Assembly: GCF_002854065.1 (NCBI RefSeq) | Contig: NZ_CP024147.1 | Reading direction: 5' to 3' (one strand) | Length of the DNA stretch: 64,000 nucleotides | From: Escherichia coli | Lineage (GTDB): Bacteria > Pseudomonadota > Gammaproteobacteria > Enterobacterales > Enterobacteriaceae | Part shown: one piece after another, positions 15,142 to 59,008 of the stretch | Numbering within the stretch: position 1 is the first letter of the stretch | How the letters are laid out: each line of letters opens with the position of its first letter | Position numbers and translations under genes: made by a program | The notes under the pieces: generated by a model | What the model saw: the letters and a program-made list of their open reading frames with translations, nothing else | What the model was told of the DNA's origin: nothing | Databases searched by the model: none

Positions 15142-15288
15142 TTTTACCTCTGTAAAGTATTCGTTGTTGTCTGTACCTGCGTACGAGATGGCGCGGATTA
15201 TAAAGAGCAACAGGGCCGTTGACTATTGATGAAGGTAACATTTTTTTAAAATAAACCTAGTTTAAGCAACAATCAGGGACAAAACAGA

Positions 15289-54458: not shown

Positions 54459-55712
54459 TTATGCGTAAACCGGGTAACGTGCGCAGATGTCGAGAACTTT
54501 ACCTTTGATACGCTCGATAACGGCTTCATCATTGATGCTGTCCAGCACGTCACACATCCAGCCAGCCAGTTCTTTCGCTTCTGCTTCTTTGAAGCCGCGA
54601 CGCGTAATCGCCGGAGTACCCACGCGAATACCGGAGGTCACAAACGGGCTCTTCGGATCGTTCGGTACGCTGTTTTTGTTGACGGTGATGTTAGCACGGC
54701 CCAGAGCGGCGTCTGCTTCTTTACCGGTCAGGTTTTTATCTACCAGATCAACCAGGAACAGATGGTTATCAGTACCGCCGGAAACCACTTTGTAGCCGCG
54801 TTCCAGGAACACTTCTACCATCGCTTTAGCGTTTTTAGCGACCTGCTGCTGGTAAGTTTTGAACTCAGGCTCCATCGCTTCTTTCAGAGCAACCGCTTTA
54901 CCGGCGATTACGTGCATCAACGGACCGCCCTGACCACCAGGGAAAACGGCAGAGTTCAGTTTTTTGTACAGCTCTTCGCTACCACCTTTCGCCAGGATCA
55001 GGCCGCCGCGCGGACCCGCCAGGGTTTTGTGAGTGGTGGTAGTAACAACGTGAGCATGAGGAACCGGGTTCGGGTAGACGCCAGCAGCAACCAGGCCCGC
55101 AACGTGCGCCATATCAACGAACAGGTAAGCGCCGATGCTGTCAGCGATTTCACGCATTTTCGCCCAGTCCACCACGCCGGAATATGCAGAGAAGCCACCG
55201 ATAATCATTTTCGGTTTGTGTTCTTTGGCTTGTTTTTCCAGATCGGCGTAGTCGATATGACCGGTAGCATCAATACCGTAAGGAACGATGTTGTACAGTT
55301 TACCGGAGAAGTTAACCGGAGAACCGTGAGTCAGGTGACCGCCATGCGCCAGGTTCATACCCAGAACGGTATCACCTGGTTCCAGCAGCGCGGTGTAGAC
55401 CGCAAAGTTAGCCTGGGAGCCGGAGTGCGGCTGGACGTTAGCGTAGTCAGCGCCGAACAGTTCTTTCGCACGATCGATCGCCAGTTGTTCAACGATATCA
55501 ACATACTCGCAACCGCCGTAGTAGCGTTTGCCCGGATAACCTTCAGCATATTTGTTGGTCAGCTGAGAACCCTGCGCCTGCATTACGCGCGGGCTGGTGT
55601 AGTTTTCGGAGGCGATCAGTTCGATGTGCTCTTCCTGACGTACTTTTTCCTGCTCCATAGCCTGCCACAGTTCGGCATCATAATCGGCAATGTTCATTTC
55701 ACGCTTTAACAT
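54459..55712 (-). CDS. glyA: Serine hydroxymethyltransferase
   Basis: ORF track frame 54459-55718; conserved start [12 protein letters not shown] at ATG 55710-55712 (417 aa); PLP site ..TTTTHKTL... Confidence 0.96.
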
Positions 55713-55990
55713 CCGCATCTCCTGACTCAGCTAACAATAAAATTTTTGGCCTTTATAGGCGGTCCTGTTGGACAACGGCGAACAGTATAACCGAATCATT
55801 GTGCGATAACAGGTCTTGACAAAGGAATTTACGCAAACGATTACCTTCAGGCTACGCAAGGCTTTGGAGAATAAAGAGCTTGCAACCGGAAACGGATTTC
55901 TTTTCAGGTTTGTGATGCAAATTTTTCACTTCATCACATTCTTTCTGAAAAACACCAAAGAACCATTTACATTGCAGGGCTATTTTTTAT

Positions 55991-56013
55991 AAGATGCATT
56001 TGAGATACATCAA
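55991..56013 (+). promoter_or_regulatory. NsrR operator-like inverted repeat in the hmp promoter
   Basis: aagatgcatttgagatacatcaa, an AT-rich inverted repeat (AAGATGCATTT / inverse) 27 bp upstream of the hmp ATG; matches my recollection of the NsrR site at hmp. Confidence 0.55.
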
Positions 56014-56039
56014 TTAAGATGCAAAAAAAGGAAGACCAT

Positions 56040-57230
56040 ATGCTTGACGCTCAAACCATCGCTACAGTAAAAGCCACCATCCCTTTACTGGTGGAAACGG
56101 GGCCAAAGTTAACCGCCCATTTCTACGACCGTATGTTTACTCATAACCCAGAACTCAAAGAAATTTTTAACATGAGTAACCAGCGTAATGGCGATCAACG
56201 TGAAGCCCTGTTTAACGCTATTGCCGCCTACGCCAGTAATATTGAAAACCTGCCTGCGCTGCTGCCAGCGGTAGAAAAAATCGCGCAGAAGCACACCAGT
56301 TTCCAGATCAAACCGGAACAGTACAACATCGTCGGTGAACACCTGTTGGCAACGCTGGACGAAATGTTCAGCCCGGGGCAGGAAGTGCTGGACGCGTGGG
56401 GTAAAGCCTATGGTGTACTGGCTAATGTATTTATCAATCGCGAGGCGGAAATCTATAACGAAAACGCCAGCAAAGCCGGTGGTTGGGAAGGTACTCGCGA
56501 TTTCCGCATTGTGGCTAAAACACCGCGCAGCGCGCTTATCACCAGCTTCGAACTGGAGCCGGTCGACGGTGGCGCAGTGGCAGAATACCGTCCGGGGCAA
56601 TATCTCGGCGTCTGGCTGAAGCCGGAAGGTTTCCCGCATCAGGAAATTCGTCAGTACTCTTTGACTCGCAAACCGGATGGCAAAGGCTATCGTATTGCGG
56701 TGAAACGCGAAGAGGGTGGGCAGGTATCCAACTGGTTGCACAATCACGCCAATGTTGGCGATGTCGTGAAACTGGTCGCTCCGGCAGGTGATTTCTTTAT
56801 GGCTGTCGCAGATGACACACCAGTGACGTTAATCTCTGCCGGTGTTGGTCAAACGCCAATGCTGGCAATGCTCGACACGCTGGCAAAAGCAGGCCACACA
56901 GCACAAGTGAACTGGTTCCATGCGGCAGAAAATGGCGATGTTCACGCCTTTGCCGATGAAGTTAAGGAACTGGGGCAGTCACTGCCGCGCTTTACCGCGC
57001 ACACCTGGTATCGTCAGCCGAGCGAAGCCGATCGCGCTAAAGGTCAGTTTGATAGCGAAGGTCTGATGGATTTGAGCAAACTGGAAGGTGCGTTCAGCGA
57101 TCCGACAATGCAGTTCTATCTCTGCGGCCCGGTTGGCTTCATGCAGTTTGCCGCGAAACAGTTAGTGGATCTGGGCGTGAAGCAGGAAAACATTCATTAC
57201 GAATGCTTTGGCCCGCATAAGGTGCTGTGA
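56040..57230 (+). CDS. hmp: Flavohemoglobin (nitric oxide dioxygenase)
   Basis: ORF track frame 56019-57230; conserved start [15 protein letters not shown] at ATG 56040 (396 aa) with AAGGAAG SD; globin plus FAD/NAD reductase domains. Confidence 0.96.
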
Positions 57231-57274: not shown

Positions 57275-57649
<375 letters not shown>

Positions 57650-57673: not shown

Positions 57674-59008
57674 TCATTCCTTGAAATCGTTTGCATCCAG
57701 CTCGTGTCGGGAAAGCAGTTTATAAAATTCTGTCCGGTTGCGCCCCGCCATTCTCGCCGCGTGGGTGACGTTGCCTTTGGTAATTTGCAGCAGCTTACGC
57801 AAATAGTTGAGTTCAAACTGATTACGTGCCTCAACAAAGGTTGGCAGCGCCGTGTTTTCGCCCTCCAGCGCCTGCTCTACTAATGCATCACTAATCACCG
57901 GAGATGAGGTCAGCGCCACGCACTGTTCAATCACGTTGACCAACTGGCGCACATTACCCGGCCAGCTCGCGGTCATCAGGCGTTTCATCGCATCGGTAGA
58001 GAACGCGCGGACAAACGGTTTATGTCGCTCTGCCGCCTGGCGCAACAGGTGATTTGCCAGTAGCGGAATGTCTTCTGTGCGCTCCGCCAGTGCCGGAATT
58101 TTCAGGCTGACAACGTTGAGGCGGTAATAGAGATCTTCGCGGAATTCCCCGCGCGCCATCGCTTTTGGCAGATCACGGTGAGTGGCAGAAATAATCCGCA
58201 CATTGATATCAATATCGTGGTTACTGCCCAACGGGCGCACTTTACGCTCCTGCAACACGCGCAACAGTTTGACCTGCAACGGCGCAGGCATATCGCCAAT
58301 CTCATCGAGAAATAGCGTTCCGCCTTCCGCCGCCTGGAATAAACCTTCGCGATTGCTGACAGCGCCAGTAAACGCGCCACGCGCATGACCAAACAGCTCC
58401 GACTCCAGCAATTGCTCGGGCAATGCACCACAGTTAATAGCAATAAATGGTTTGCTATTGCGCGGGCTGGCGTTGTGGATAGCCTGGGCGAAAATCTCTT
58501 TCCCGGTGCCGCTCTGGCCATTAATCAAAACGCTGACGTCTGATTGCGCCACCAGCCGCGCCTGTTCCAGCAAACGCAGCATCAGCGGGCTGCGGGTGAC
58601 AATCGCCTCGCGCCAGCGTTCGTCGGTGGCTGGCGCGGATTGTTCCAGCGCATCATCAATTGCCTGATATAGCGCGTCTTTATCGACAGGCTTGGTGAGG
58701 AAACTAAAAACGCCCTGCTGTGTTGCAGCAACGGCATCAGGAATAGAACCATGCGCGGTAAGAATAATTACCGGCATTCCCGGCTGCACTTTCTGGATTT
58801 CAGCAAACAGCTGCATACCGTCCATTTCATCCATCCGCAGGTCGCTGATAACTAAATCTACTTTTTCGCGATTCAGTACCCGTAATCCTTCAGCGCCACT
58901 TTCCGCCGTGACCACACTGTAGCCTTCGCTGGTCAGGCGCAGGCCAAGCAGTTTCAGCAATCCCGGATCGTCATCGACCAATAATAAATGCGCAGGTTTA
59001 TGGCTCAT
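57674..59008 (-). CDS. glrR: Sigma54-dependent two-component response regulator GlrR
   Basis: ORF track frame 57674-59110; conserved start MSHKPAHLLLVDDDPG at ATG 59006-59008 (444 aa); receiver domain, AAA+ sigma54-activation domain (GQSGTGKE, GAFTGA), C-terminal HTH. Confidence 0.93.
   Translation of the reverse strand: MSHKPAHLLLVDDDPGLLKLLGLRLTSEGYSVVTAESGAEGLRVLNREKVDLVISDLRMDEMDGMQLFAEIQKVQPGMPVIILTAHGSIPDAVAATQQGVFSFLTKPVDKDALYQAIDDALEQSAPATDERWREAIVTRSPLMLRLLEQARLVAQSDVSVLINGQSGTGKEIFAQAIHNASPRNSKPFIAINCGALPEQLLESELFGHARGAFTGAVSNREGLFQAAEGGTLFLDEIGDMPAPLQVKLLRVLQERKVRPLGSNHDIDINVRIISATHRDLPKAMARGEFREDLYYRLNVVSLKIPALAERTEDIPLLANHLLRQAAERHKPFVRAFSTDAMKRLMTASWPGNVRQLVNVIEQCVALTSSPVISDALVEQALEGENTALPTFVEARNQFELNYLRKLLQITKGNVTHAARMAGRNRTEFYKLLSRHELDANDFKE

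Follow-up and report, generated by a model that had tools for sequence, protein, structure and literature searches.

The 327-bp spacer between glyA and hmp (55713..56039 of the window, by which we mean the whole 64,000-nucleotide stretch of DNA analysed) is, in our firm view, a control region shared by these two divergent genes, with NsrR and FNR sites at the hmp promoter, tandem MetR sites, and a PurR operator on the glyA side. The sequences, positions, conservation and matrix significance behind this view were computed here, and the in vivo occupancy by NsrR and PurR and the existence of two MetR sites are taken from the literature. The palindrome just upstream of hmp is the published NsrR site at the hmp promoter, and the elements are already known and of an ordinary kind. 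A sequence-only reading of the same DNA had accurately taken this palindrome for an NsrR operator, and the analysis adds window coordinates for each regulatory element of the spacer.

The flanking genes are defined by their reading frames. The glyA coding sequence (serine hydroxymethyltransferase) occupies 54459..55712 on the minus strand; the mechanical open reading frame runs to 55718, but the annotated minus-strand ATG lies at 55712, where the protein start MLKREMN... matches K-12 b2551 and the RefSeq annotation. The hmp coding sequence (NO dioxygenase, or flavohaemoglobin; K-12 b2552) occupies 56040..57230 on the plus strand and starts from an internal ATG at 56040 of its open reading frame. 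With these two starts, both with K-12 equivalents, the length and divergent arrangement of the spacer are as originally read. Hmp is the main aerobic NO-detoxifying enzyme in enteric bacteria.

The spacer is 100% identical, base for base, to 2685508..2685834 of K-12 MG1655, and the wider 2772-bp block from glyA to hmp, including both coding sequences, shows 19 differences from K-12; the window is E. coli, though not K-12 itself. Of 5426 complete E. coli genomes, 5425 matched a 551-bp query over the spacer, 5390 of them with at least 99% identity, and the annotation there reads 'glyA | hmpA: NO-inducible flavohemoprotein'. No known RNA element came up when 55300-56500 was scanned against Rfam, the sole hit being an insignificant one to mir-67 (E 0.86), and a CRP consensus scan of the spacer gave poor matches only (3/10 mismatches). 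A 58-codon open reading frame at 55816..55992 was rejected as spurious, since it crosses regulatory sites and poorly conserved stretches.

The string that had been flagged as an NsrR-type palindrome, aagatgcatttgagatacatcaa (equal to AAGATGCATTTGAGATACATCAA), lies at 55991..56013 and ends 27 nt before the hmp ATG. It is an imperfect inverted repeat of 11-1-11 type, AAGATGCATTT-G-AGATACATCAA. The NsrR operator of hmp in E. coli and Salmonella was reportedly described by Rodionov in 2005, by Bodenmiller and Spiro in 2006 and by Partridge in 2009. For strain CFT073, 27 NsrR sites of the 11-1-11 type have been tabulated, among them a ChIP-seq-positive hmp entry, TTGATGTATCTCAAATGCATCTT (PMC5320621 Table 4), which when reverse-complemented gives exactly the window 23-mer; the two are the same element, with no sequence difference. 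In the same study the NsrR ChIP-seq peak is centred 34 bp upstream of hmp, and two 11-mers are named at this peak: AAGATGCATTT, 44 bp from hmp, and AAGATGCAAAA, 19 bp from it. These map to 55991-56001 and 56016-56026 of the window.

To score the site without circularity we used a symmetrised matrix built from 25 distinct published CFT073 sites with hmp left out. On this matrix the hmp 23-mer scores 17.2 bits and ranks second among the 63,978 positions of the window (18.1 bits when the window supplies the background and the pseudocount is altered slightly). Of 5000 shuffles of the AT-rich spacer that preserved its dinucleotides, 13 produced a match this strong, as did 8 of 200 shuffles of the full 64 kb. 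The repeat is self-complementary at only 7 of the 11 arm positions, which is why an inverted-repeat finder (seed 6, minimum length 8) did not report the operator and why matrices were needed.

The two arms differ greatly in quality. The left half-site, AAGATGCATTT (55991..56001, plus strand), scores 16.0 bits, the best 11-mer half-site among 127,980 positions on both strands of the window, and has a mean conservation of 0.96. The right half-site, TTGATGTATCT (56003..56013, minus strand), has a conservation of 0.76 and falls outside the eight best half-site matches in the spacer, which go down to 5.0 bits; judged by the matrix, the right arm in E. coli is a poor NsrR half-site. The second 11-mer of the published ChIP-seq table, AAGATGCAAAA (56016..56026, plus strand), is an extra NsrR-like half-site with a score of 7.95 bits; it is specific to Escherichia, with a conservation of 0.44. 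We also note a 9-bp direct repeat, TAAGATGCA, at 55990 and 56015 (55990..56023, with a 25-bp period), which is without a copy in other genera and which yields both this extra half-site and a second TAAGAT hexamer.

The operators of ytfE and hcp share with hmp the 11-1-11 architecture and the left-arm consensus AAGATGCATTT. Scored by the same matrix, the ytfE operator is a perfect palindrome of 32 bits and that of hcp reaches 27.6 bits; unlike these two, hmp has a degenerate right arm, palindromic at 7/11 positions, that carries an FNR box.

The top NsrR 23-mer of the window is found elsewhere, in the pbpC-ndk spacer just upstream of ndk (AACATTTTTTTAAAATAAACCTA, 15237..15259, 19.4 bits). In nitrate-grown cells of the CFT073 study ndk ranked second among the induced genes, at 201-fold, and neither ndk nor pbpC appears in the NsrR ChIP-seq tables (PMC5320621). 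This match is probably an AT-rich coincidence, and its concurrence with the induction of ndk is unexplained.

The operator had also been said to overlap the hmp promoter. A promoter scan returned a sole promoter-like match on the hmp side, TTTACA at 55966..55971 and TAAGAT at 55990..55995 on the plus strand, separated by an 18-bp spacer (alternative -10 hexamer TATAAG, 55988-93). Conservation across 79 species is 1.00 for the predicted -35 and 0.99 for the predicted -10 hexamer, and the operator starts within the latter, so the predicted overlap involves hexamers that are 99-100% conserved. On the strength of this consensus match and its conservation, the overlap of operator and promoter is itself a prediction. 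The hmp transcription start would lie at about 56002 if the FNR site is centred at +5.5, as it is described to be. One E. coli start-site table lists no forward-strand start for hmp (PMC4681348 supplement), as expected for a repressed gene.

In the hmp leader, a Shine-Dalgarno sequence, AGGAAG, can be read at 56029..56034 on the plus strand (mean conservation 0.87 for the overlapping 56028-56034). Between the extra NsrR half-site and this sequence is a run of A residues (56023..56029), which is A7 here and in K-12 and A8 in strain EC21Z-097. Over an 86-bp segment around the run, identity is between 95 and 99% in 1788 of 5418 E. coli genomes, of which EC21Z-097 was the one inspected.

Conservation was evaluated across the Enterobacteriaceae. 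A scan of species-representative genomes with the Hmp protein gave 80 loci from this family, with 81-99% protein identity. The divergent glyA-hmp arrangement is present in 79 of 81 loci (K-12 and the 80 fetched), the other two covering only about 20 bp upstream of hmp, and the comparison set consists of 79 spacers: that of the window and those of 78 fetched loci with the divergent arrangement. Spacer lengths range from 272 to 346 bp across the divergent loci, and the mean identity to the E. coli base over the whole spacer is 0.75. In all 79 spacers it is the orthologous site that matches the NsrR matrix best; it lies 40-61 nt before the ATG and scores 17.2-30.5 bits (median 26.0). For the best non-overlapping second match, the median is 6.4 and the maximum 9.8 bits. 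The identification of the palindrome as an NsrR operator thus stands, on an exact published ChIP-seq site, a score of 17-18 bits and its recurrence in 79/79 spacers, with one addition that the sequence-only reading lacked: the right arm doubles as an FNR box.

This box, TTGAG-ATAC-ATCAA (TTGAGATACATCAA, 56000..56013), consists of the right arm and three bases of the left arm, and is one mismatch from TTGATNNNNATCAA. It invites the view, originally held from the 1990s to 2002, that the palindrome is primarily an FNR operator and that its likeness to an NsrR site is secondary. The near-consensus match speaks for this view, as do the FNR-dependent expression of hmp and the in vitro FNR binding at hmp that are reported in the literature. 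Across the window, however, the pattern TTGAT-N4-ATCAA is not significant (4 found against 2.4 expected), and the box is not conserved across the orthologous promoters. Among the 77 of 79 spacers in which it could be scored, it has at most one mismatch only in 5 Escherichia and 6 Citrobacter, and decays to 2-8 mismatches in the other 66, while the NsrR match rises to 20-30 bits. Rodionov et al. (PMC1274295) likewise remarked that the NsrR site is widespread, while conservation of the FNR site is limited to close relatives. Myers et al. (PMC3688515) report FNR-dependent expression and a predicted FNR site for hmp, yet no FNR ChIP-seq peak, even though the site passes their FNR matrix threshold; they suggest that such silent sites are masked by other proteins. 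An NsrR ChIP-seq peak does exist at hmp (PMC5320621). Reviews describe NsrR as a strong repressor and name it the major regulator of hmp, and full derepression by NO is said to persist in an fnr mutant and to be lost in an nsrR mutant. We therefore regard a primarily FNR operator as very improbable. The functions of NsrR and FNR are not exclusive, and it is only the reading of FNR instead of NsrR that we reject.

Still less probable is a chance near-palindrome in AT-rich DNA, the conservation of which would reflect just the core promoter and leader of hmp. The arms are palindromic at only 7/11 positions, the left one overlaps the -10 hexamer, so that its conservation is inseparable from that of the hexamer, and the higher score (19.4 bits) of the unrelated AT-rich 23-mer upstream of ndk demonstrates that false-looking matrix matches do occur. 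However, a composition-matched shuffle attains the score of the hmp site in only 13/5000 cases, and in vivo NsrR occupancy has been published (PMC5320621). The right arm, moreover, which is downstream of the predicted hexamers, varies across the 79 species but among NsrR-compatible versions only, in 79/79. Least credible of all is a Fur box conferring iron- and NO-dependent control. The literature describes Fur as a weak hmp repressor, but the early claim was retracted and the later effect called weak; within the spacer no match to the 19-bp Fur consensus has fewer than 8 mismatches, and none of the four best lies at the palindrome.

With the palindrome assigned to NsrR, we turn to the remainder of the spacer, where MetR and PurR sites had been expected on the glyA side but not located with confidence. 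MetR was tested by consensus and tandem spacing in place of a matrix. Site A, proximal to hmp, is TGAAAAATTTGCA (55916..55928, minus strand; TGCAAATTTTTCA on the plus strand), with one mismatch to TGAANNNNNTTCA and a conservation of 0.87; site B, proximal to glyA, is TGAAAAGAAATCC (55894..55906, minus strand; GGATTTCTTTTCA on the plus strand), with two mismatches and a conservation of 0.96. Single matches with at most one mismatch are uninformative window-wide (30 found, 28 expected). The two sites are exactly 22 bp apart, the sole such pair in the 64 kb with 0.45 expected, and this spacing is retained in 65 of 79 spacers, so the tandem-consensus match is significant and yields a candidate pair for the expected sites. 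Taking the hmp start near 56002, site A is centred at about -145 from glyA and -80 from hmp, and site B at about -123 and -102 respectively.

DNase I footprints of MetR in this spacer were reportedly obtained by Lorenz and Stauffer in 1995 and by Membrillo-Hernandez in 1998. Two sites with the MetR consensus TGAAnnTnnTTCA have been reported in the hmp-glyA region, where MetR with homocysteine activates glyA and represses hmp (PMC5002191); from their sequence we infer that 55894-906 and 55916-28 are these two sites. In the metE-metR spacer of K-12 the second MetR site, TGAATAATTTGCG, sits 21 bp from a perfect TGAAAGTCCTTCA, and site A is identical to this second site at 11 of 13 positions. Both spacers thus contain a tandem TGAA-N5-TTCA-like pair about two helical turns apart, with a better distal and a degenerate proximal member. 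Unlike the pair at metE-metR, that at glyA-hmp is far upstream of glyA (about -123/-145), away from the -35 region, and has two divergent target genes, metR not being one of them. Site A is also bracketed by a 7-bp perfect inverted repeat, TGTGATG ... CATCACA (55911..55938); its CATCACA right arm is not conserved outside Escherichia, and its spacing does not fit CRP.

The glyA-side PurR operator was located at 55831..55846 on the minus strand, where the window is the exact reverse complement of the published motif AGGTAATCGTTTGCGT. This motif belongs to a glyA ChIP-chip region bound by PurR both with and without adenine, and its coordinates, 2,683,648-663 (Cho et al., PMC3159470 Table 1), served to calibrate the conversion of published positions (window = U00096.2 - 2,627,817). 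It is the one match with at most 3 mismatches to the PurR consensus ACGCAAACGTTTGCGT in the 64 kb. Using a matrix built from the other 27 motifs of PMC3159470, with glyA left out, it scores 21.8 bits, which is the top of the window by about 9 bits, exceeds the training median of 20.4 and was reached in none of 5000 shuffles. Matrix scans thus gave significant matches for both NsrR and PurR. At least 90% of the 79 species retain one half of the box, ACGCAAACG.

Counted from the glyA start, the box runs from -54 to -69, with its centre at -61.5. With the PurR operators of the pur regulon (ACGNAAACGTTTGCNT) it shares the 16-bp box and ChIP-chip occupancy, with a score above the published-site median. 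It lies upstream of the -35 region, whereas in 14 of 32 promoter regions the PurR site is between -35 and -10 (PMC3159470). The next-best distinct PurR-like site of the window is TTGAAATCGTTTGCAT (57681..57696, 12.4 bits), upstream of glnB and between two published glnB starts at window positions 57647 and 57709 (PMC4681348); glnB is a known PurR target that was missed by the ChIP-chip study (PMC3159470).

The glyA positions are counted from a published transcription start, a reverse-strand class I start at 2,683,594 (U00096.2) that overlaps RegulonDB (PMC4681348 supplement) and converts to 55777 on the minus strand, giving a leader of 65 nt. The -10 hexamer TATACT (55784..55789, minus strand) is 7 nt upstream of this start, and at least 90% of species retain ACAGTATAAC. 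A consensus scan had picked a different promoter, TTGTCA and AATGAT separated by 16 bp, which we rejected because its -10 hexamer is poorly conserved (0.71) and the published start fits TATACT. Both the -35 region of the TATACT promoter and the scan-picked TTGTCA are contained in a near-invariant block, GATAACAGGTCTTGACAAAG (55805..55824, -28 to -47 of glyA), which is at least 90% conserved across the 79 species. Its conservation extends past the need of a -35 hexamer, and the role of the block beyond the -35 is unexplained; these 20 bp also carry a perfect TTGACA on the strand in the hmp direction. At the downstream end of the leader, a Shine-Dalgarno sequence, AGGAG, can be read at 55719..55723 on the minus strand, in a block (55713-55735) that is at least 85% conserved at every position.

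Taken together, the positions suggest how the spacer might operate. Holo-NsrR, an Rrf2-family iron-sulfur repressor, would sit on its operator from about -12 to +12 and block RNA polymerase at the sigma-70 promoter of hmp; steric occlusion as the mechanism of repression is what we infer from this geometry. NO would damage the iron-sulfur cluster, so that NsrR leaves the DNA and hmp is transcribed, a release through cluster damage that is described in the literature. The FNR box in the right arm would provide a second, anaerobic and NO-sensitive repressor input, while the tandem MetR sites would couple glyA and hmp to homocysteine and the PurR operator would give purine repression of glyA.

What appears mildly new is the comparison of operators between genera: the Escherichia operator is, by matrix score, the weakest NsrR match of the 79 and among the closest to the FNR consensus, and it is accompanied by a putative lineage-specific third half-site. 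Specifically, the lowest NsrR score in the set (17.2 against a median of 26 bits) belongs to the four sequences with the 23-mer of E. coli. Other genera have versions of the right arm nearer to the consensus, e.g., AAATACATCTT; the Enterobacter/Klebsiella version of the operator is AAGATGCATTTAAAATACATCAT, and AAGATGCATTTAAAATACATCTT is a near-perfect palindrome. The bases that lower the Escherichia score include the terminal AA, which complete the ATCAA of the FNR box, and this suggests a lineage-specific trade in which the NsrR match may have been given up for an FNR box in Escherichia. It is possible, if on balance doubtful, that the Escherichia right arm was remodelled into a composite NsrR/FNR site, GAGATACATCAA (in most genera AAAATACATCAT or ...CTT), at a cost of about 9 bits of NsrR match, and that the TAAGATGCA repeat added a third, lineage-specific NsrR half-site beside the ribosome-binding site.

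The low rank of the Escherichia operator adds only a little, and Rodionov et al. (2005) had anticipated part of it. Tight control of Hmp by NsrR is important when the bacteria have to survive in macrophages or the urinary tract. If the changes in the right arm and the third half-site do have a function, NsrR would hold hmp less tightly in E. coli than in other enterobacteria, and NsrR and FNR would be rivals for a single site; the silence of the FNR box in FNR ChIP-seq could be explained in this way.
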